DNA of 20,704 nucleotides from Candidatus Wukongarchaeum yapensis (lineage in GTDB: Archaea; Asgardarchaeota; Wukongarchaeia; Wukongarchaeales; Wukongarchaeaceae): NCBI GenBank assembly GCA_016840425.1, contig JAEOSI010000015.1, positions 1 through 20,704 of the forward strand. The letters are read 5' to 3'. Position 1 is the first letter of the stretch, and every line of letters begins with the position of its first letter. Below the pieces are notes generated by a model. It was not told where the DNA came from, made no database searches, and worked only from the letters and a program-made list of their open reading frames with translations. A program made the position numbers and the translations under genes. This document shows, in pieces, positions 1-18,477 of this stretch.

Positions 1-2057
1 GCGTTCCTTAGCTCATCTGCAAGGTCCATTGTTTCTATTGTTGGTATTAGCCCTGTAACTATCGCTTCACCTTCTTTTTCAAGTTGTCTTACGTCTATTA
101 CTTGTCCTCTATGTCCTGAAATAAGCTTTGTAGCTTCTCCCATCATGTGGAGTGGTAAGCGCATGTCAACTCTGACTACGGGTTCGTACAAGCGAGGTTC
201 TGCTGTGAGGAAACTCATGTTCAACGCTGAACTAGTCATAGTAAATACTTCACTATATCCTGTATGCGCCGGATCTTCATGAACAAAACAGTCTGTAATG
301 ACAATTTTCAGCCCCATTACGGGTTCTCTTGCAAGAGGTCCTCCTTCAACAAAATCATTAATCACGTTTATTATTGCTTGTTTTAGCCGGTCTAATCTCT
401 GAACTCCGGCAGTCATATTTACTATTACGTTGTTTTTGTATATATCCCAAATGTTTCTTGCTTCTTTCATGTTCCATCCTGCCTCTTCTTTAAGAATTCT
501 TGCCCGTTCTTTTTCTGGTTGATCTGCAGTAACTTTTCTTGTCTTAATTAGTTCAAGGGTCTTTTCATCAAGGGGTTCTACATAACCCTTAATCTTATTA
601 TGCCCATTAGAACTCTTAGTGTGAAACTCTTGACCTCTTTGTTCAACCTTTTCTCTGAAAACGACTACAGGTTCACTCATATTTATAGGCACATGATCGT
701 TTATTCTTCTAGCTAATACTTCTAATTGCAAGGGGTCTATGCCACTAATAATCGTTTTCTTAGTCTCTTTGTCGAAAGTGAATAATAACGTAGGATCTGC
801 CAAGGTCCACATTTTAACTATCTCATCTAATTTAGCTATGTCTTGAGGATTAGCTGCTTCAATTGTACGTGAAACAACAGGCTCTACCGCGTACTTAATC
901 TGCTCAAAAGGCGTTAGTTCTATATTTGAGTCTGAAAACGATTCTCCTGCAGGGCAAATAAAGCCGTATATGCTAAACATGTTCCCTGCTTTAATTTCTG
1001 GCATATCAAGAATATCTGTTACTTCCTGAACCCCAACTCTTTTTACCCTTTGAACGCTTTTTCTCGTAAGCAAACGAACTTCTTGACCTGCTTTTAATGT
1101 TCCACTAAAAACTCTGCCTACAAGAAAAGCCCTCAATCTTTTAGGATCCATTACAACTTTTGCAATAACCCCTAAAAGATCCCCGTTTGGGTCAGTATCA
1201 AGCAAGGCTTTTCCAACTTCTGAATCAAGATCCCCCTTCCAAATAGATGGAATTTTATTTTTTTGTCCTGTTTCAGGATCTGGCAAATGATTAATAACCA
1301 TCTCCAACATTGCTTCATGAAGCGGTAAGGTTTTACGTAACCATTCCTTATCCCCTTCGGCGTATTTCTCAAAAACTATTTCTGGGGTAATATTTTTACG
1401 TTTTAAAACAGGAAAAGTAAAAGCCCATCCGTCTTTCGCACTGCCAACAGCTACAGTCCCTTCTTTAAAATTACTAGTCCATTCTTCAGCAAACTGAGGT
1501 GGGGCTACTCTACGTATATAATCATTAACCCCCCTGATTATGGTATCCAAACGCTCATAAGCCGCTTTAGGAGATAATCTAAGCTCAGAAATAAGCCTAT
1601 CCGCTTTATTGATGAACAAAACCGGTTTACACCCTTCTGCACCCACAGAGAGCCTAATATTGGTTTCTGTTTGAGTTAAAATTCCCTCCACTGCACAAAC
1701 TACAAGCACAACCCCATCAGAACAACGCAAAGCCCTTGAAACTTCACCGGTCCAACTAATATGCCCTGGCGTATCATTAACTTCGAGCAAGTATGCCTTA
1801 CCATCATACTCAAACCCTAAATTAATTACGCTACCAAAAATTGTTAACTTTCGTTCCTTTTCGATAACATCCCAATTTGTTAGCAGCTTCCTTCCTGCTT
1901 CTGTATCCGCCATTAACCCTGCTTTGCTCAGCAAATAATCTGTTATTGAGGTTTTTCCATGATGTATATGAGCTACAATGGAGAAAATTCTCCTATTTTC
2001 CATAGGGGTGTTAGCAAACATATCTCTTAGTTCTTCTGGGTCTTTTAATTTCACCAT
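1..2057 (-). CDS. fusA: Elongation factor 2 homolog with HTG diphthamide loop and altered G motifs; 3' end runs off the window
   Basis: Hand translation from ATG at 2057 (GAGGTGG SD upstream): MVKLKDPEELRDMF..IVAHIHHGKTSITDYLL..EKERKLTIF..NDTPGHISWTGEVSRALRCSDG..FINKAD..SGIDPLQLE..GGPLAREP..HEDPAHTGYSE..LYEP. 685 codons lie inside the window with no stop seen. Confidence 0.95.
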   Translation of the reverse strand, partial: MVKLKDPEELRDMFANTPMENRRIFSIVAHIHHGKTSITDYLLSKAGLMADTEAGRKLLTNWDVIEKERKLTIFGSVINLGFEYDGKAYLLEVNDTPGHISWTGEVSRALRCSDGVVLVVCAVEGILTQTETNIRLSVGAEGCKPVLFINKADRLISELRLSPKAAYERLDTIIRGVNDYIRRVAPPQFAEEWTSNFKEGTVAVGSAKDGWAFTFPVLKRKNITPEIVFEKYAEGDKEWLRKTLPLHEAMLEMVINHLPDPETGQKNKIPSIWKGDLDSEVGKALLDTDPNGDLLGVIAKVVMDPKRLRAFLVGRVFSGTLKAGQEVRLLTRKSVQRVKRVGVQEVTDILDMPEIKAGNMFSIYGFICPAGESFSDSNIELTPFEQIKYAVEPVVSRTIEAANPQDIAKLDEIVKMWTLADPTLLFTFDKETKKTIISGIDPLQLEVLARRINDHVPINMSEPVVVFREKVEQRGQEFHTKSSNGHNKIKGYVEPLDEKTLELIKTRKVTADQPEKERARILKEEAGWNMKEARNIWDIYKNNVIVNMTAGVQRLDRLKQAIINVINDFVEGGPLAREPVMGLKIVITDCFVHEDPAHTGYSEVFTMTSSALNMSFLTAEPRLYEPVVRVDMRLPLHMMGEATKLISGHRGQVIDVRQLEKEGEAIVTGLIPTIETMDLADELRN

Positions 2058-2207
2058 TAGCAACCACCTCTCTTTACCATAAATAATTGAAAAGATAAGA
2101 AAAAATGATCTTATTTTTATTTATTTAACCTTAATTTTTTTAATATAATATCTTTACATTAACCTTTCCATAATTATCAAAAAAAATATAATAACCTAAA
2201 ATGATAA

Positions 2208-2571: not shown

Positions 2572-5337
2572 TTGAGATTGTCTTCTAAAATCAGACGGCT
2601 TGTAGACGATATAAATAAGATTATGCTTTTTAAAGAAAACATTCGTAATTTCTGCATATGTTCCCATGTTGATCATGGAAAATGTGTTTCTGGTGATTCA
2701 AAAGTTTATGTTAATGGTCAATGGGAGAAAGCTTCTGTACTTTTTGAATCCTTTAAACAATCTCCGATAATTTTTTCTGGTAAAAATGAAACAGTTTTAG
2801 ATGTTTCTTCAAAAGGTTTGCGCACCATATCTCTAGATGTTTCTACTGGATGCATTTTGTGGAAACCCATAACCTATATCTGGCGATTAAAATATGATTC
2901 TAATTTGATTGAAGTTTCATTAGGGAATGGAAGAAAAGTAAAAGTTACTCCTGAGCACAAATTTTTAGTTTTAAACGGTAATAAAATCATAGAAAAAAAT
3001 GCAAAGAATCTGAAAAAAGGAGATTATATAATTGTGCCTAATACGTTGCATGTAACTCCCAATGATCCTGATTTTATTTCTAAAACAATTCCACTTAATA
3101 GCAAAGATATATGTTTTGAAAAAGTGGTTTCAAAAAGTTTAATGTTTGAAAATTATGTTTATGATTTTTCTGTTCCTGATACTCATAATTTAGTTGTGGA
3201 AGGATTTTTCGTACATAATACAACCCTCGCTGACAATTTGTTAGTTGCTGCTGGTCTACTTTCACCAAATGTTGCGGGAAAGGCTCTTGCTCTAGATTAT
3301 TTGGAAGAAGAACAAAAAAGAGGTATAACGATAAAAACAGCTATAATATCTCTTTTACATAAAATCGGCAATAAATCTTACATACTTAATCTGATAGATA
3401 CCCCCGGTCATATTGATTTTAGTGGAAAAGTAACAAGGGCACTGCGAATAATTGACGGTGCAGTAGTAGTTGTAGATGCTTTAGAAGGAATTATGGTTCA
3501 GACAGAAATTGTTACAGAACAAGCGTTAAATGAATGTGTAAAACCTGTACTATTTATTAACAAATTAGACCGTCTTATCCGCGAGTTAAAACTATCTCCC
3601 AAAGAAATCCAAAAACGTTTAAGTTCTATAATTAGCGACTTTAATGGCATCATCGATTCTTATGCAGAGCCAAAATTCATTAAATTATGGAAAGTTAAAC
3701 CTGCTGCAGGATCTGTGACTTTTGGTTCAGCTCTTCATAGGTGGGGTTTTACATTACCAATTGCTAAAGAAAAAGGTGTAAAATTTTCAGACATAATTCA
3801 GTTTTATGCCCAAAATAATGGGTTTTTAAAGCTTAGCACTTTGCTTCCTCTTCATTCTGCTGTACTTGATATGATTGTTAATCATCTTCCTTCTCCTACG
3901 GAGGCTCAGGCTTATCGTATACCTAAACTTTGGCATGGTGACCTTTCTAGTGAAATCGGTCAAGCCATGCTTAAATGTGATTCAAGTTCTCCTCTTGTCA
4001 TTGTTATAAATCATTCTTACATTGATCCTTTAGTTAAAAGTGTTATTTGTATGGGGCGAATTTTTTCTGGTGTTGTCCATGTTGGCGATAAGGTGTTTAT
4101 TCTTTCTAAAAAGAAACGGAACAGAGTTCATCAAGTAAGCATGTTTATGGGTGAAAATCGCATTGTTGTAGACGAGGTTTCTACTGGTAATATAGTGGCT
4201 CTTCTGGGTCTTGAAGAAGCACGTCCTGGGGATACTGTTTGTGATTTATCTATAGCGGATTCTATGGTTCCTTTTGAGTTAATAAAATATGTGAGTGAAC
4301 CTGTTGTCACAGTTGCTATAGAACCTTTAAATCCGAAAGGTTTACCCAAAATGATTGAAATAATGGAAAAAAATCTTGTTATTGAAGATCCTAATCTCAA
4401 AGTTTCTATTAATAAAGAGACCGGAGAATACCTTTTAAGCGGTATAGGCGAGTTGCATCTTGAAATAGCAGCAAAGAAAATTATAGAACATGGCATAGAT
4501 GTTTCAATTTCTCCTCCAATTGTTTCATTTAGGGAAAGCATTACGCAAAAAACTCCTCATCCCATTGTTGTTAAGAGCCCTAATCATTATAATGAAATGT
4601 CTTTGATAGTTGAACCTCTCGAGGAAAAAATTGTAGACTTAATAATTAACACGGGTATAAATGGTCCTTTTACAGAAAAAGAATCGCCGAAATTGGTAGG
4701 AGACTTTATCGATAAAACTTTCCTTGATTTAAGGAAAATTTTGGGATTATCTGCTACAGGAAATATCTTGCTTTTAGATTTTGAAAATTCTCAACTTTTG
4801 TCTGATGTTAAAGATTCCATAGTATCCGGATTTTTGCAAGCTTGTAATTCTGGTCCTTTATGCGAAGAATCTCTTCGCGGGATAAAAATTTTGGTCAAAA
4901 ACTTAAATTATGCTGATGTTATTCAAAAACGGGGAAGTGAAATCGTTCATATGGTTAAAAATGCTATATGGGATGCAATAATCTCATCTGGTCCATCACT
5001 ATTAGAGCCTATTTATAAAATAACGATACGTCTTACTCGTGATTTCATTGGAAAGGTTAAACATGTTCTCTCTAAAAGGAGAGGAACTATTCATAGTATT
5101 AAAGAAAAACCTCCTGTTTTCATTATAACCGGGTTTATACCTGTGGCTGATACCTTTAATTTAGCTTCAGAATTAAGAAGTGAAACTAGTGGAACCGCTC
5201 TTTGGCAAATGAAACTTGATCATTGGGCTTTTGTCCCTAAAAACAAGTTAAAAAACCTCATACTTGAAATTAGGCAACGAAAAGGCCTCTACCCTGACTT
5301 TCCAGAAACTCCGATATTTCTTGATAATATTGAATAA
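2572..5337 (+). CDS. fusA: Elongation factor 2 paralog (aEF-2p-like), intein-containing precursor of 921 aa, about 742 aa after splicing
   Basis: TTG start after AAGGAG. Motifs SHVDHGK/TT, EEEQKRGITIK, DTPGHIDF, NKLD, SGIGELHLE, GPLCEE..LLEP. KRG replaces the HRG diphthamide motif. Confidence 0.95.
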   Translation: MRLSSKIRRLVDDINKIMLFKENIRNFCICSHVDHGKCVSGDSKVYVNGQWEKASVLFESFKQSPIIFSGKNETVLDVSSKGLRTISLDVSTGCILWKPITYIWRLKYDSNLIEVSLGNGRKVKVTPEHKFLVLNGNKIIEKNAKNLKKGDYIIVPNTLHVTPNDPDFISKTIPLNSKDICFEKVVSKSLMFENYVYDFSVPDTHNLVVEGFFVHNTTLADNLLVAAGLLSPNVAGKALALDYLEEEQKRGITIKTAIISLLHKIGNKSYILNLIDTPGHIDFSGKVTRALRIIDGAVVVVDALEGIMVQTEIVTEQALNECVKPVLFINKLDRLIRELKLSPKEIQKRLSSIISDFNGIIDSYAEPKFIKLWKVKPAAGSVTFGSALHRWGFTLPIAKEKGVKFSDIIQFYAQNNGFLKLSTLLPLHSAVLDMIVNHLPSPTEAQAYRIPKLWHGDLSSEIGQAMLKCDSSSPLVIVINHSYIDPLVKSVICMGRIFSGVVHVGDKVFILSKKKRNRVHQVSMFMGENRIVVDEVSTGNIVALLGLEEARPGDTVCDLSIADSMVPFELIKYVSEPVVTVAIEPLNPKGLPKMIEIMEKNLVIEDPNLKVSINKETGEYLLSGIGELHLEIAAKKIIEHGIDVSISPPIVSFRESITQKTPHPIVVKSPNHYNEMSLIVEPLEEKIVDLIINTGINGPFTEKESPKLVGDFIDKTFLDLRKILGLSATGNILLLDFENSQLLSDVKDSIVSGFLQACNSGPLCEESLRGIKILVKNLNYADVIQKRGSEIVHMVKNAIWDAIISSGPSLLEPIYKITIRLTRDFIGKVKHVLSKRRGTIHSIKEKPPVFIITGFIPVADTFNLASELRSETSGTALWQMKLDHWAFVPKNKLKNLILEIRQRKGLYPDFPETPIFLDNIE
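2683..3219 (+). other. Mini-intein (179 aa, no homing endonuclease) in the EF-2 P-loop
   Basis: Interrupts HVDHGK|TT. Begins with Cys (CVSGDSKV), block B TPEH, block F VYDFSV, C-terminal VHN followed by Thr+1. No LAGLIDADG motif. Confidence 0.95.
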
Positions 5338-8229: not shown

Positions 8230-9516
8230 CGAGAAGTCTCCTTCTGCGAGGGAGGGGATGAATCACGGTGTTTATAAAAGTTTTTAGGAAACTCAAGGTA
8301 GATAAAAATGATAAGTTACAAATTTGGGCTGTATCCAAACCAAGAGCAAGAAAAAAGACTGTTAGAAGTTCTTGATAGGTGTAGGTTTGTCTACAATCAA
8401 ATGTTAGAGGGTTTAAACAAGCAGGAGGGTAAGCCTAATAGGTTGGAGTTGCAAAACTCCATTCCAGAGCTAAAAGAAAAGCATCCAGAGCTGGAAGAAG
8501 TTTACTCTAAAGTTCTCCAATATGAATCGTACAGGTTGTTCTCAAATCTGAGAGGTTTGGCAAGGTTGAAGAAGAACGGTAAAAAAGTAGGGAAACTTAG
8601 ATTTAAGAGTAAAGGATGGTTTAAAACTTTTACATATAATCAGAGCGGGTTTAAAATCATAGAGACTGGTAAGAGACATGACCTGTTACATTTATCGAAG
8701 ATTGGGGATATAAAGATTAGGATGCATAGAACAGTGGAAGGGAAGAAAATAAAACAGGTAACAATAAAGAGATATTGTTCTGGTAAATGGTATGCTTTAA
8801 TTTGTTGTGAACAGACTATACCCGTTAAAAAAGGGGTTGAGAAGAAAGTTGTAGGAATTGATATGGGAATAATCCACTATGTTACCGATATTTGTGGCAG
8901 GCAAATAGAAAACCCTCTTTACCTGAACAAATATTTTAAAAATTTGAGAAAAATACAACGAAAACTATCTAAGAAAAAGAAAGGCTCTAACAACTATCAG
9001 AAACAGAAGATAAGAGTTGCAAAAATGTATGAAAGAATCAAAAATCAGAGGGATGATTTCTTACACAAACTGTCAAGATTTTATGTCCAAAATTATGATT
9101 TTATAGCCGTAGAAAAACTAAACGTAAACGGTTTGATAAGGATTAGTTATAATGCTCGTAACATGATGGATTCCTCTTGGAAAAGATTCACGCAATTTTT
9201 GTCTTATAAGGCTGAAAGAGCTGGTAAGACGGTTTTAGAGGCGGATCCGGGAGGAACTTCACAAGAGTGTTATAAATGCGGTAAAGAAGTAAAGAAAAGT
9301 TTGGCTGTAAGAACCCATAAATGCCCTTACTGTGGTTTAGAAATTGGCAGAGACTACAACTCCGCGTTTGTTGTCTTGAAAAGAGGTTTAGAAGAAGTGT
9401 TAGGGCAGGGACTGTCCGAATTTACGCCTGGGGAGACAGAACCTCTACCGAGAGAAATCTCAGCAAGTTCAGTCGTTGAACCAGGAAACTCCCCCCGATA
9501 GGGAGGAGTAGTTCAC
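8230..9516 (+). mobile_element. IS200/IS605-family (IS1341-like) tnpB-only element
   Basis: Left subterminal hairpin CTCCTTC-tgc-GAGGGAG (8238-8254) after TTTAA (8225-8229). Right hairpin CTCCC..GGGAG (9489-9505) followed by GAGTAGTTCAC. Only tnpB lies inside, no tnpA. Exact ends are inferred. Confidence 0.85.
8308..9501 (+). CDS. tnpB: TnpB RNA-guided endonuclease
   Basis: N-terminal YKFGLYP..Q HTH, RuvC-I GIDMG, RuvC-II AVEKL, zinc finger CYKCG..CPYCG, RuvC-III RDYNSA. Confidence 0.96.
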   Translation: MISYKFGLYPNQEQEKRLLEVLDRCRFVYNQMLEGLNKQEGKPNRLELQNSIPELKEKHPELEEVYSKVLQYESYRLFSNLRGLARLKKNGKKVGKLRFKSKGWFKTFTYNQSGFKIIETGKRHDLLHLSKIGDIKIRMHRTVEGKKIKQVTIKRYCSGKWYALICCEQTIPVKKGVEKKVVGIDMGIIHYVTDICGRQIENPLYLNKYFKNLRKIQRKLSKKKKGSNNYQKQKIRVAKMYERIKNQRDDFLHKLSRFYVQNYDFIAVEKLNVNGLIRISYNARNMMDSSWKRFTQFLSYKAERAGKTVLEADPGGTSQECYKCGKEVKKSLAVRTHKCPYCGLEIGRDYNSAFVVLKRGLEEVLGQGLSEFTPGETEPLPREISASSVVEPGNSPR

Positions 9517-14476: not shown

Positions 14477-15958
14477 TTAACCTTTTACTATGCCAATAGG
14501 TCGCATTTTTGCTACATACTTTCCAATACCAAGTTCATGAGAGACTTTTGCTACATTGTCCACATCTTTGTATGCTCCGCCCGCTTCTTCTGCTAATACT
14601 TTCATCTTTGCTGCTTTTACTATAATCCCTACTTTTTCCATCTTCTCTTTTACAGTCTCTCCCCAGTACCTTTTTATTGAAGCTTTACGGCTTAACAATC
14701 TTCCTGCTCCATGAGCAGTACTTCCAAAAGATATCTCCATGCCTTTTTCACTACCTACAAGTAAATAACTTGCAGTTTCCATAGTGCCTGGAATAAGGAC
14801 CGGTTGCCCCACATTACGGTAATCTGAAGGCACATCTGGATGCCCCGGAGGAAACGCCCTAGTTGCACCTTTTCGATGAAGCACTACCTTTCTTTTAACA
14901 CCATCAATCATGTGTTCTTCAATCTTCGCAATATTATGACACACATCATATATTTGCCTTAAACCTAAATCTTCTGCAGATTGCTTAAATGCCTCTTCAA
15001 AAGATTCTCTTACCCCATGTAAAATCATCTGTCTGTTTGTCCATGCAAAATTCGCCGCACAAGCCATAGCATTTAAATAATCCTGTCCTTCTCTAGTATT
15101 AAAAGGCACACAAGCAAGCTCCCTATCTGGCACTTTTATACCGTATTTTTCCATGGCACGCTCCATGGTTTTTAAATAATCTGAAGCAATTTGATGTCCA
15201 AACCCTCTTGAACCTGTATGGATCATGACGGTGATTTGCCCCTCTTCTTCTATACCAAAGACTTTAGCAGTTCGTTCATCAAAGATTTTATCAACTACTT
15301 GCACTTCTAAAAAATGATTACCACTACCCAAAGATCCAAGTTGCGGAATCCCCCTTTTTATTGCCATGGGAGAAACTTTAGAAGGATCCGCGTTTTTCAT
15401 CGCTCCATTTTCTTCACAATGCTCAATATCCGTTTCCCATCCATAACCGTTTTCTAAAGCCCATTTTAGCCCTCCTATCATAACTTCTCTCAACTGAGAT
15501 TCTGTTACTCTAATCTGCCCCCTACTTCCAAGCCCCGAAGGTACGTTTTTAAAAAGCAAATTTACAATCTCTTTCATATTTGGTTTAACGTCTTCTATTC
15601 TCAAATTTGAGCGAATCATTCTTACGCCACAATTTATATCAAATCCTACCCCCCCTGGGGAAATGACACCTTTCTCCGCATCAATTGCGGCTACACCTCC
15701 GATGGGGAAACCATAACCTTCATGGGCGTCAGGCATAGCTATTGCTTTGGATAAAATTCCTTTAAGAGACGCTACATTTGCTAGCTGATCAAGAGTTCTA
15801 TCTTTAGTAATACTTTGCATCAAATTTTCATCCGCATAAATAATTCCATCAACTAACATGGAGTTTTTATAGGATTTTGACAATTTCCAAGTAAACTTAT
15901 CAATTTTTTCCAATGGGTATTTTAGCGTTTTTTTCATCTCTTTTTTCATTTTTTCCAC
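14477..15958 (-). CDS. rtcB: tRNA-splicing ligase RtcB
   Basis: MPDAHEGYGFPIGGV, VGFDINCGVR, LGSLGSGNHFLE, HTGSRGFGH, HRKGATRA, STAHGAGR, EEAGGAYKDV. Confidence 0.98.
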   Translation of the reverse strand: MEKMKKEMKKTLKYPLEKIDKFTWKLSKSYKNSMLVDGIIYADENLMQSITKDRTLDQLANVASLKGILSKAIAMPDAHEGYGFPIGGVAAIDAEKGVISPGGVGFDINCGVRMIRSNLRIEDVKPNMKEIVNLLFKNVPSGLGSRGQIRVTESQLREVMIGGLKWALENGYGWETDIEHCEENGAMKNADPSKVSPMAIKRGIPQLGSLGSGNHFLEVQVVDKIFDERTAKVFGIEEEGQITVMIHTGSRGFGHQIASDYLKTMERAMEKYGIKVPDRELACVPFNTREGQDYLNAMACAANFAWTNRQMILHGVRESFEEAFKQSAEDLGLRQIYDVCHNIAKIEEHMIDGVKRKVVLHRKGATRAFPPGHPDVPSDYRNVGQPVLIPGTMETASYLLVGSEKGMEISFGSTAHGAGRLLSRKASIKRYWGETVKEKMEKVGIIVKAAKMKVLAEEAGGAYKDVDNVAKVSHELGIGKYVAKMRPIGIVKG

Positions 15959-16088
15959 CTTAGTTTTAGAAAATTATTATTTGATTTAGAATTTAAAAAT
16001 CAAAATAACAGTGGTTTTTAGCTTTATAATAAAAACCACCTGTAAAATTATATAAATAGATTTAAACCTTATCTATTTATTAAAATAT

Positions 16089-16514
16089 TTAAATATCTAA
16101 AATGAATTCTACTATCGTTCTTTTATCTGTAACTTCTATTTTTATCATACCATATGTCATAGCTTTAATCTCTGTTCCTATTTCGTGCCTTGAAGGATCA
16201 AATTCTTCTCCTTTCGCTTTAGCTTTAAGATTCCATTCATTATTATATTTTTCTATCTTAACTTCAAAATCCGAAAAAACAATTTGTTCAACATCAAAGA
16301 TAATAATTATCTCTTCTATCCACCTGTATAATAGTCCTTCAAGATCTTCTGCTTTTACGTAAAATTCCCTCTCAATTTTTGGAACTATTTGATCGACATT
16401 TGTCATAACATTGGTGGTAGCACGTGCAGCTTCTGCAAAAGCTTCCTTCAAACTATTACCATATGCTCTAATATATACATCCGCCGTATGCTCAAGATAT
16501 TCAAACCCTCTCAA
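16089..16514 (-). CDS. Archease (RtcB cofactor)
   Basis: FEYLEHTAD, EIKAMTY, FILDI. TTG start after GGTGAGG. Directly upstream of rtcB. Confidence 0.96.
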   Translation of the reverse strand: MRGFEYLEHTADVYIRAYGNSLKEAFAEAARATTNVMTNVDQIVPKIEREFYVKAEDLEGLLYRWIEEIIIIFDVEQIVFSDFEVKIEKYNNEWNLKAKAKGEEFDPSRHEIGTEIKAMTYGMIKIEVTDKRTIVEFILDI

Positions 16515-16731
16515 TATGCCTCACCGTGTGAATATGAATCGGAAGATTTTAATATAAATTAATAAAAATTAACTTTTTAAAAAGTAGATAATTTATGTAA
16601 AAACTTTTACGCGATAACTTAATAAAGGATTAATAAAACCATATTATCCCCCTTTCAACTGAAATAAGAATAACGAAAAGCTAAAAAAGAAAGAATGAAA
16701 AATTAAAGTGAATAAAAGGAGGCCCAATAAA

Positions 16732-18045
16732 ATGAGTAAAGAAAAACCCCATCTTAACTTGGTTATCACAGGCCATGTAGACCATGGTAAAAGTACGCTG
16801 ATGGGTCACGTATTATATCTGGCAGGCGTTATTGATGATCGTACTATCCGTTCTTTAGAGTCTGAAGCTGAAAAATTAAAAGATCCTTCATTTAAATTTG
16901 CTTTTGTGCTCGATCGCTTAAAAGAAGAACGGGAGCGAGGTCTCACCATTGATTTAGCCTTTTATAAATTTGATACTAAAAAATATTATTTCACAATTAT
17001 AGACTGTCCTGGTCATAGAGATTTTGTTAAAAACATGATTACTGGAACTTCTCAGGCTGATGCTGCGATTTTAACAGTTTCTGCCAAAAAAGGCGAATTT
17101 GAGGCAGGTATCGGTAAAGGAGGACAAACTGTCGAGCATGCAGTTTTAGGGGCAACTCTGGGCGTTAGCCAATTTTTAGTAGCCGTCAACAAAATGGACG
17201 ACATGACAGTAAACTGGTCAAAAGATAGATACGAAGAAGTTAAGAGTAATGTAGATCGTATCTTCAAATTAATTGAGCGCGAATTACAAACAAAATTAAT
17301 AGTTACTTATGTGCCCGTTTCTGCATGGACTGGTGATAATTTAATGGAGCGTAGCTCCAACATGCCCTGGTATGATGGACCAGTCTTTTTTGAAGCTCTA
17401 GATGTCTTTGTAGTGCCTGAAAAGCCTATAGATAAACCTTTAAGAATCCCAGTTCAAGACGTTTATTCAATCACTGGTGTAGGTACAGTTCCAGTAGGGC
17501 GTGTTGAAACAGGAGTACTAAAGGAAGGGGATGTTGTTGTTTTTATGCCTTCAAATAAACAAGGCGAAATTAAAACCCTTGAAATGCATCATACAAGAAT
17601 ACTTAAAGCCGAGCCTGGTGATAACATTGGATTTAATGTGAAAGGACTAGGTAAAAAAGATCTGCGGCGCGGTGATGTCGCTGGTCCCCTGGATAGTCCT
17701 CCCACTGTTGTTAAAGAGTTTACAGGCCGAATATTTGTAATCTATCACCCTACCGCTATTGCTGCAGGATATACCCCAGTAGTACACGCACATACCGCCC
17801 AAGTAGCATGCACAATAAGCGAATTACAAAGCAAAATTGATCGCCGTACTGGCCAGACAATAGAAGCTAATCCATCTCACCTCAAAAGCGGAGACGGTGC
17901 GATGATAAAACTAATTCCTACTCGAGCAATGGTCATCGAAAAATTCTCCGATTTTCCACCTTTAGGGCGGTTTGCAGTACGTGATATGGGCATGACGATT
18001 GCTGTAGGAATCGTAGAAGATGTTGCTCCAAAAAAAATGTCTTAA
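16732..18045 (+). CDS. tuf: Elongation factor 1-alpha
   Basis: GHVDHGKST, ERERGLTID, IDCPGHRDFVKNMITGTSQAD, NKMD, PVGRVETG, LGRFAVRDMG. Start set at ATG 16732 after AGGAGG. Confidence 0.99.
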   Translation: MSKEKPHLNLVITGHVDHGKSTLMGHVLYLAGVIDDRTIRSLESEAEKLKDPSFKFAFVLDRLKEERERGLTIDLAFYKFDTKKYYFTIIDCPGHRDFVKNMITGTSQADAAILTVSAKKGEFEAGIGKGGQTVEHAVLGATLGVSQFLVAVNKMDDMTVNWSKDRYEEVKSNVDRIFKLIERELQTKLIVTYVPVSAWTGDNLMERSSNMPWYDGPVFFEALDVFVVPEKPIDKPLRIPVQDVYSITGVGTVPVGRVETGVLKEGDVVVFMPSNKQGEIKTLEMHHTRILKAEPGDNIGFNVKGLGKKDLRRGDVAGPLDSPPTVVKEFTGRIFVIYHPTAIAAGYTPVVHAHTAQVACTISELQSKIDRRTGQTIEANPSHLKSGDGAMIKLIPTRAMVIEKFSDFPPLGRFAVRDMGMTIAVGIVEDVAPKKMS

Positions 18046-18168
18046 CATCTTTTTCTATCTTTATTTAAATAAAAAACATATCTATTTCTCAAATATCAAA
18101 CAAAAACCTCAAAAAAATTGATTACAACCCAAACAACTAATTATTTTTTAGAATGCTGGTGTAGATTC

Positions 18169-18477
18169 ATGGTTCAAAAAGCTAGGATACGATTATCTGG
18201 CAGAGATCCTTCACGCCTTGACTTTGTCTGCACACAAGTAAAAACTATAGCTAAACGCACAGGAGTCCGTATGTGGGGGCCTGTGCACCTACCTACAAGA
18301 AAATTAAAAGTACCTGTGAGAAAAAGCCCTTGTGGTGAAGGCACTCATAGCTGGGAACGTTGGCAACTAAGAATCCATAAACGGTTAATAGATCTAGACG
18401 CAGATGAACGTACCCTCAGACAAATCATGAGGATACAAGTCCCTGAAGATGTATACATTGAAATCGAGTTAATTTAA
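18169..18477 (+). CDS. rpsJ: 30S ribosomal protein uS10
   Basis: [36 protein letters not shown]. Follows tuf. Start set at ATG 18169. Confidence 0.98.

Follow-up and report, generated by a model that had tools for sequence, protein, structure and literature searches.

The gene for aEF-2p, a paralog of archaeal elongation factor 2 (aEF-2), is interrupted in the Asgard archaeon Candidatus Wukongarchaeum yapensis by an endonuclease-free mini-intein, which occupies positions 2683 to 3219 of the DNA analyzed here. This DNA, called the window below, is the whole stretch of 20,704 nucleotides (nt) from position 1 to 20,704 on the forward strand of contig JAEOSI010000015.1 (assembly GCA_016840425.1). 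The intein lies between the Lys and the Thr of the P-loop, the G1 motif of the GTPase domain. Inteins at this site of EF-2 are common in public sequence data, and what is new here is a mini form in an Asgard aEF-2p. The element is most probably a selfish intein, degenerate and fixed, with constitutive splicing.

The insert is 537 nt long, or 179 codons, and splits Lys from Thr in the P-loop SHVDHGK/TTLADN (slashes mark intein-extein junctions), so that the translated precursor reads NFCICSHVDHGK, then CVSGDSKV...VEGFFVHN, then TTLADNLL. Cys1 is encoded by TGT (2683-2685), His178-Asn179 by CAT AAT (3214-3219), and Thr+1 by ACA (3220-3222), and the extent given by an earlier note made from the letters of the window, 179 amino acids (aa) from Cys1 to His-Asn with Thr+1, is exact. 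The Pfam model Intein_splicing (PF14890), for which the cut-off is 35.8 bits, gives a score of 93.6 bits (E = 1.4e-26), and the NCBIfam models intein_Nterm and intein_Cterm (TIGR01445 and TIGR01443) both score over their cut-offs; chance is therefore no explanation for the match. In an alignment of 46 of the EF-2 inteins that share the insertion site, nine columns are invariant (C1, G83, T89, E91, H92, V159, D161, H178, and N179), and the window intein carries all nine. With Cys1, TxxH in block B, the Asp of block F, the terminal His-Asn, Thr+1, the profile score, and a modeled HINT fold, the insert has the features of a class-1 intein. The AlphaFold2 model, for which the 46-intein alignment served as input, is an all-beta HINT domain (predicted local distance difference test [pLDDT] score of 91.1; predicted template-modeling score of 0.85) with a single poorly defined segment at residues 121 to 142, where pLDDT values are 46 to 60 in the linker and below 50 at residues 132 to 138. 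The top Foldseek matches of the model are the solved mini-inteins PhoCDC21-1, Pyrococcus horikoshii (Pho) RadA, TFIIB, and TvoVMA (template-modeling [TM] scores of ~0.79; E values of 1e-13 to 1e-11), and the nearest solved chain by sequence is the Pho RadA mini-intein (E = 2e-9).

No LAGLIDADG (PF14528) or HNH domain was found between the splicing halves in a Pfam search of the intein. When the intein is aligned by BLAST to its large relatives, residues 1 to ~125 pair with their N termini and residues ~137 to 179 with their last ~43 residues; the 300- to 440-aa LAGLIDADG modules of these relatives therefore map into the linker NTLHVTPNDPDFISKTIPLNSKD. The short linker that had been placed where a homing endonuclease would sit proved to be just that, 23 residues at the point where the alignments to large relatives split. 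The G+C content of the intein (29.2%) differs from that of the C-extein (34.9%), a gap too slight to argue for recent import.

The host open reading frame (ORF) spans 2572 to 5337 on the plus strand, and its likeliest start is the TTG at 2578 rather than 2572, because the homologous TTG in the congeneric genome G001 is immediately preceded by a stop codon. A GGAG lies ~10 nt upstream of this TTG, with the same spacing in G001 and in the genome of the window (G000). G001 was deposited as Candidatus Hodarchaeota archaeon DZ1B.339. Pfam finds GTP_EFTU (split by the intein), D2, EFG_III, EFG_IV, and EFG_C in the precursor, and the exteins score 714 bits with the NCBIfam aEF-2 model TIGR00490. Once spliced, the protein would carry canonical G1, switch I, G3, and G4 motifs (SHVDHGKT, RGITIK, DTPGH, and NKLD). 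At the end of the N-extein (2644-2682), Cys residues occupy positions -8 and -10, where canonical EF-2 reads GIIAH. The Ser that replaces Ala before HxDHGK is common to Loki/Thor-type aEF-2p copies (G004b, G015b, and G025b).

A second EF-2 family gene is encoded on the minus strand, head to head with the first and divergently transcribed, a layout retained in G001. This gene, aEF-2, has AHIHHGKTS at its P-loop and an altered switch I, and the plus-strand copy is the one GTPase-canonical EF-2 of the window, as the earlier note had stated. In two-copy archaea without dph genes, the diphthamide-loop Arg of aEF-2 is in every case exchanged for Thr (HxDxxHTG), and aEF-2p is the copy without the diphthamide His and the SPHKHN loop that keeps G1 to G5 (Narrowe et al. 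2018, PMC6143161). On its motifs, the plus-strand gene fits this operational definition of aEF-2p. An aEF-2p-type host had also been proposed from the letters, and the degenerate loops SPNHYNE and YADVIQKRG, the canonical G1 to G4, the HEDPAHTG of the partner, and the lack of a detectable Dph2 all agree with it. For this last point, a search of the 92%-complete genome for Dph1/2 (PF01866), the sole dph family looked for, gave no match, and archaeal controls were positive.

Phylogenetically, the partner protein (P0002) falls with support of 100 in the aEF-2 clade of two-copy Asgard genomes, and the FastTree tree places the plus-strand protein on a long branch (0.64) among the second copies G008a, G028a, and G018a, with weak support. 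aEF-2p is not monophyletic in this tree, nor was it in that of Narrowe et al. 2018 (PMC6143161). The pair resembles the aEF-2/aEF-2p pairs described there from dph-lacking Asgard archaea and Korarchaeota in having two genes, an HxDxxHTG partner, a degenerate second copy with GTPase motifs, and no Dph2 found. It differs in that the window aEF-2p has degenerated less than most, with D, I, and RG retained in the loop, the two genes lie head to head, and inteins are absent from the text of that paper, in which the word "intein" does not occur (PMC6143161). Coordinates of the intein, of the host motifs, and of the partner gene are collected in Table 1.

Table 1. Positions in the window of the intein-bearing aEF-2p gene, its intein and motifs, and the partner gene
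Feature	Position	Strand	Evidence or remark
aEF-2p gene	2578..5337	+	ORF; 919-aa precursor, 740-aa protein after splicing (predicted)
N-extein half of G1/P-loop, SHVDHGK, last residue Lys(-1); Cys at -8 and -10 (CICSH)	2662..2682	+	
Class-1 mini-intein, HINT domain only, 179 aa	2683..3219	+	Pfam PF14890, AlphaFold2 model, Foldseek
Block A, Cys1 nucleophile at 2683-2685	2683..2721	+	C1 invariant in 46 same-site EF-2 inteins
Block B GRKVKVTPEHKFLV, Thr89 at 2947-2949, His92 at 2956-2958 (T89-P-E-H92)	2929..2970	+	G83, T89, E91, H92 invariant
Linker NTLHVTPNDPDFISKTIPLNSKD, intein residues 120-142, endonuclease scar	3040..3108	+	BLAST split of large inteins
Block F FENYVYDFSVPDTH, Asp161 at 3163-3165	3145..3186	+	V159, D161 invariant
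Block G VEGFFVHN, His178-Asn179 at 3214-3219	3196..3219	+	H178, N179 invariant
C-extein start TTLADN; Thr+1 splice nucleophile and P-loop Thr at once (predicted)	3220..3237	+	
Domain IV loop 2, SPNHYNE (canonical SPNKHN)	4576..4596	+	Motif table
Degenerate diphthamide loop YADVIQKRG (canonical HxDxxHRG), modified His replaced	4909..4935	+	Motif comparison
Partner aEF-2 (P0002), no intein, extends past window end	3..2063	-	AHIHHGKT, HEDPAHTG; clade with support of 100

Inteins at the same position are widespread in archaeal EF-2. With its first 300 residues as the query, a search over 5.8 billion proteins returned dozens of archaeal EF-2 proteins of 910 to 1343 aa with PF14890, most of which also have PF14528. 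Boundaries were placed in 51 protein clusters, and all read HGK/C...HN/T apart from a single HN/S; the inteins range from 178 to 614 aa, and the endonuclease-bearing forms from 467 to 614 aa. In a DNA survey, a degenerate pattern for A-H-[VI]-[DH]-H-G-K-C-[VI] was run over the GTDB species-representative genomes and was found in at least 120 of them, almost all archaeal. Among the matches listed are Woese-, Pace-, Nano-, Iain-, Aenigmat-, and Micrarchaeota, Thermoplasmata, Halobacteriales, Methanosarcinales, Hadesarchaea, and Bathyarchaeota, and complete inteins could be read at 65 loci among these matches, 10 of which (~15%) encode inteins of 170 to 204 aa. The allele and the endonuclease-bearing relatives that the earlier note had suggested looking for are both found in these collections, and one case (G089:C131/P0228) is from Asgard archaea.

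The window intein shares its site, its homologous blocks, at 30 to 43% identity, and the nine invariant residues with the EF-2 P-loop inteins of DPANN, Bathyarchaeia, Thermoplasmata, Halobacteriales, and "Ranarchaeia" (their hosts entered as "elongation factor EF-2" in public metagenome-assembled genomes), some of which are likewise mini forms. Those inteins differ in that nearly all their hosts are canonical EF-2 proteins with HEDxxHRG intact and most carry LAGLIDADG, whereas the host in the window is aEF-2p. Outside the window's genus, the diphthamide loops legible in hosts from the 51 clusters have the canonical sequence HEDxxHRG, except for one group with HEDPAHRT. This group (P0015, P0025, P0031, and P0034, with inteins of 602 to 603 aa) has Thr in place of Gly, a third variant beside the canonical and HTG loops.

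In a tree of same-site EF-2 inteins built on the splicing blocks, the window intein lies within the family, and its weak sister (support 94) is a group in DPANN-type EF-2 hosts. Its lineage is isolated: identity to the 46 aligned same-site inteins outside the genus is 28 to 43%, with no relative above ~43%, and a search with the intein only against 1.84 billion representatives gave 977 matches, none above ~42% identity. The best scores in that search belong to multi-intein proteins and are uninformative about the donor. Mini forms occur at four separate places in the tree beside large inteins, and one such pair of sisters is P0007 (178 aa) and P0022 (535 aa), with support of 98. Endonuclease loss is therefore recurrent at the EF-2 P-loop site, as the usual end of the homing cycle.

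The earlier note had suggested that an intein in an aEF-2p might be unreported. This holds for the literature, since no paper naming an EF-2 intein was found in the full texts searched, but it fails for sequence data, in which the allele is common and a second aEF-2p lineage has an intein. In Novikova 2016, aIF2 is counted as a common host of archaeal inteins, and the main text contains neither "EF-2" nor "elongation factor". The earlier note also has an EF-2 intein catalogued for Methanopyrus kandleri. That archaeal IF2 inteins use the equivalent site, as the earlier note stated, is borne out by the model of intein-containing IF-2 (NF011418), which aligns in register over the P-loop and the intein N terminus. 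Two sets of Asgard ORFs that match the intein were set aside: those of ~1150 aa, matching from residue 34 or 35 and considered as aIF5B P-loop inteins, are V-ATPase subunit A by NCBIfam, and those of ~1890 aa are MCM by NCBIfam, with no bearing on IF-2.

Within Asgard archaea, the N-extein plus intein was used as a query first against 40 relatives and later against 400 genomes from the phylum, and it matched only G000 and G001, the two genomes of the genus, each of which has the intein. No intein-less allele of the window's aEF-2p lineage was found at >53% identity in the 5.8 billion proteins. The Asgard case at the same P-loop site is an EF-2 gene with a 526-aa LAGLIDADG intein on the 2.9-kb contig JAEOTQ010000163.1 (G089:C131, "Ca. 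Hodarchaeota YT2_065"). Two intein-free genes with degenerate domain IV loops (SPNGKN; LSxEPAERS) match its C-extein at 85% and 75% identity, and the near-identical metagenomic protein P0228 holds the intein C terminus, the endonuclease, and the full C-extein with SPNGKN and MISSEIAERS. Because the contig measures only 2.9 kb and just one EF-2 is present in the remaining genomes from that genus, its binning is doubtful. Like the window gene, G089:C131/P0228 has its intein in an aEF-2p host with degenerate domain IV loops; unlike that of the window, the intein is large, sits on another branch of the tree, where it groups with inteins of canonical "Ranarchaeia" EF-2 (support 99), and belongs to another aEF-2p lineage (54% extein identity). 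The separate branch and separate host lineage therefore suggest an independent invasion, and aEF-2p genes look to have been invaded by inteins at least twice. Two invasions are plausible because aEF-2p retains the canonical P-loop coding sequence, the presumed homing site; in the partner aEF-2, this site has diverged (AHIHHGKTS).

Other insertions were seen in relatives. In the EF-2 or aEF-2p genes of several Asgard relatives, inserts of ~29 to 40 nt with stops or frameshifts occur at conserved GTPase motifs. In G029a (G029:C151 ~448-480), a 32-nt insert that contains a hairpin lies within the Lys codon of HGK/T, one base off the intein site. G007 and G017 have a 29-nt insert after DTPGHV(D), the central stems in the two species being distinguished by a G-U wobble, and G002 has a 33-nt insert in DTPG/H. 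An insert of ~40 nt follows EEEQRRG in G012b, L114, and L115; the last two are intein-free sister alleles of the G089:C131 gene, with the insert at switch I instead of an intein. Intein-bearing alleles lack these short inserts. Minimum-energy folding of the inserts gave hairpins but no clean canonical bulge-helix-bulge motif, and they look like tRNA-type mini-introns. Separately, the same-order genome G002 (contig C76) and the g36 genomes have a single EF-2 of 813 to 840 aa with ~70 aa extra in the G-domain region, between C-extein query positions 184 and 205.

We estimated selection by the Nei-Gojobori method from one genome pair, G000 and G001, in which the genes are collinear at 2760 nt each and free of indels. 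The ratio of nonsynonymous to synonymous substitution rates (dN/dS) is 0.30 for the intein (15 nonsynonymous and 13 synonymous differences), 0.20 for the intein without the linker, and 0.20 for the C-extein. All five differences in the linker region (residues 121 to 145) are nonsynonymous. Neutrality is rejected for the intein (Fisher P = 0.003), for which no difference from the extein is seen (P = 0.40). Since the dN/dS of the splicing modules is close to that of the host protein, these modules are under conservation as strong as that of the host, and constraint on the endonuclease scar is relaxed. The pattern points to a functional gene in which the ability to splice is under selection. Equal purifying selection on intein and extein argues for a cellular need for the spliced GTPase and for aEF-2p as a functional gene. 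It is equally expected of a selfish element that is obliged to splice and of a regulatory one.

On the favored reading, the intein derives from the archaeal EF-2 P-loop family, its LAGLIDADG homing endonuclease has been lost, and it has become fixed in the aEF-2p of one Asgard genus. The 919-aa precursor, with a HINT domain between the Lys and the Thr of G1, would not bind GTP-Mg properly. An N-S acyl shift at Cys1, attack by Thr+1, and cyclization of Asn179 would then join the exteins into a 740-aa aEF-2p whose SHVDHGKTTLADN loop is intact. That GTP binding should require splicing had been argued in the earlier note, and we find the argument sound: Thr+1 is the Mg-binding residue of the P-loop, and ATPase activity is absent from the Pho RadA precursor, in which an intein likewise interrupts the P-loop (PMC4513877), from both of which we infer that the aEF-2p precursor is inactive. 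Only a precise deletion could clear an intein from so constrained a site, which may account for its persistence, and its splicing residues would be held by selection as the host requires the spliced GTPase. Splicing is most likely constitutive, without an adaptive role. Several points weigh against this reading. Splicing is deduced from the intact residues and the dN/dS of 0.2 to 0.3; Thr+1 inteins can be slow or context dependent, and constitutive splicing is an assumption; how much an unspliced precursor would cost the cell depends on the function of aEF-2p; and the estimate of selection draws on just one pair of genomes.

The earlier note had raised the idea that a retained, immobile intein might gate the aEF-2p GTPase after translation, with splicing conditional on temperature, redox state, metal, or another cue. 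We consider this unlikely, though the architecture is that of the Pho RadA mini-intein (PDB 2lqm and 4e2t; Topilina et al. 2015, PMC4513877), an intein of ~172 aa in a P-loop GK/T with Thr+1. This intein is the nearest solved relative by sequence and among the best by fold (TM 0.79), and its splicing is locked by the native exteins and released by heat (PMC4513877). Its host, however, is the recombinase ATPase of a hyperthermophile, its identity to the window intein is only ~22%, and its conditional splicing was established by experiment, whereas the window intein is likened to it by architecture alone. Purifying selection on the intein would suit a switch, but the intein sits in an essential motif and has to be spliced out of it, which fully accounts for both retention and purifying selection. 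Mini-inteins also recur at this site in ordinary single-copy EF-2, which points to normal endonuclease decay rather than to a special adaptation of aEF-2p, and condition dependence cannot be read from sequence. The two Cys residues close to Cys1 (CICSHVDHGK/C) could in principle form a disulfide or metal trap, but the Cys at -10 is also present in the intein-free aEF-2p G025b. Co-option of the intein as a gate in this specific form, with Cys-8 and Cys-10 beside Cys1 trapping the precursor through a disulfide, a metal, or extein-intein contacts until a particular redox state, metal, or temperature releases it, seems to us slightly less probable still.

We give little credence to a dead insertion, in which the intein would no longer splice and the gene would be decaying or would yield an unspliced, GTPase-dead protein with another role. 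The long extein branch (0.64) would fit decay, and aEF-2p, which is without the domain IV loops needed for translocation, may have another function. Against this, all catalytic and invariant residues of the intein are intact, the ORF is unbroken and collinear in two genomes with dN/dS of 0.2 to 0.3 in both intein and extein, and the spliced protein would have canonical G1, switch I, G3, and G4 motifs. It is less credible again that the mini-intein is still mobile, mobilized in trans by the endonuclease of another intein or of a free-standing gene, for although MCM of the same genome contains LAGLIDADG-bearing inteins and its PolD DP2 a further intein, these lie at unrelated target sites, no intein-free allele of the window's aEF-2p lineage was found that could be the target, and the intein is confined to one genus among 400 Asgard genomes. 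The MCM gene (1700 aa; G000:C152:12000-17100) contains two inteins, at least one with LAGLIDADG and helix-turn-helix domains, and the PolD large subunit DP2 (G000:C242:2500-7200) contains one.

Elsewhere in the window, a TnpB/IS605 OrfB gene lies at 8308-9501 on the plus strand, and an RtcB ligase gene adjoins that for Archease at 14477-16514 on the minus strand. The genes for aEF-1alpha and then ribosomal protein S10 follow at 16708-18477 on the plus strand, and the EF-2 genes lie ~11 kb away from this usual EF-1alpha/S10 cluster.

For annotation, the 919-aa "EF-2" is to be read as the precursor of a 740-aa aEF-2p, and inteins should be stripped before Asgard EF-2 paralogs are aligned or modeled. 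More broadly, the P-loop of EF-2 is a heavily used intein site across Archaea that goes unmentioned in the literature searched. If the intein did act as a switch, it would provide the first functional handle on aEF-2p and would tie an Asgard translation factor paralog to stress-dependent control.

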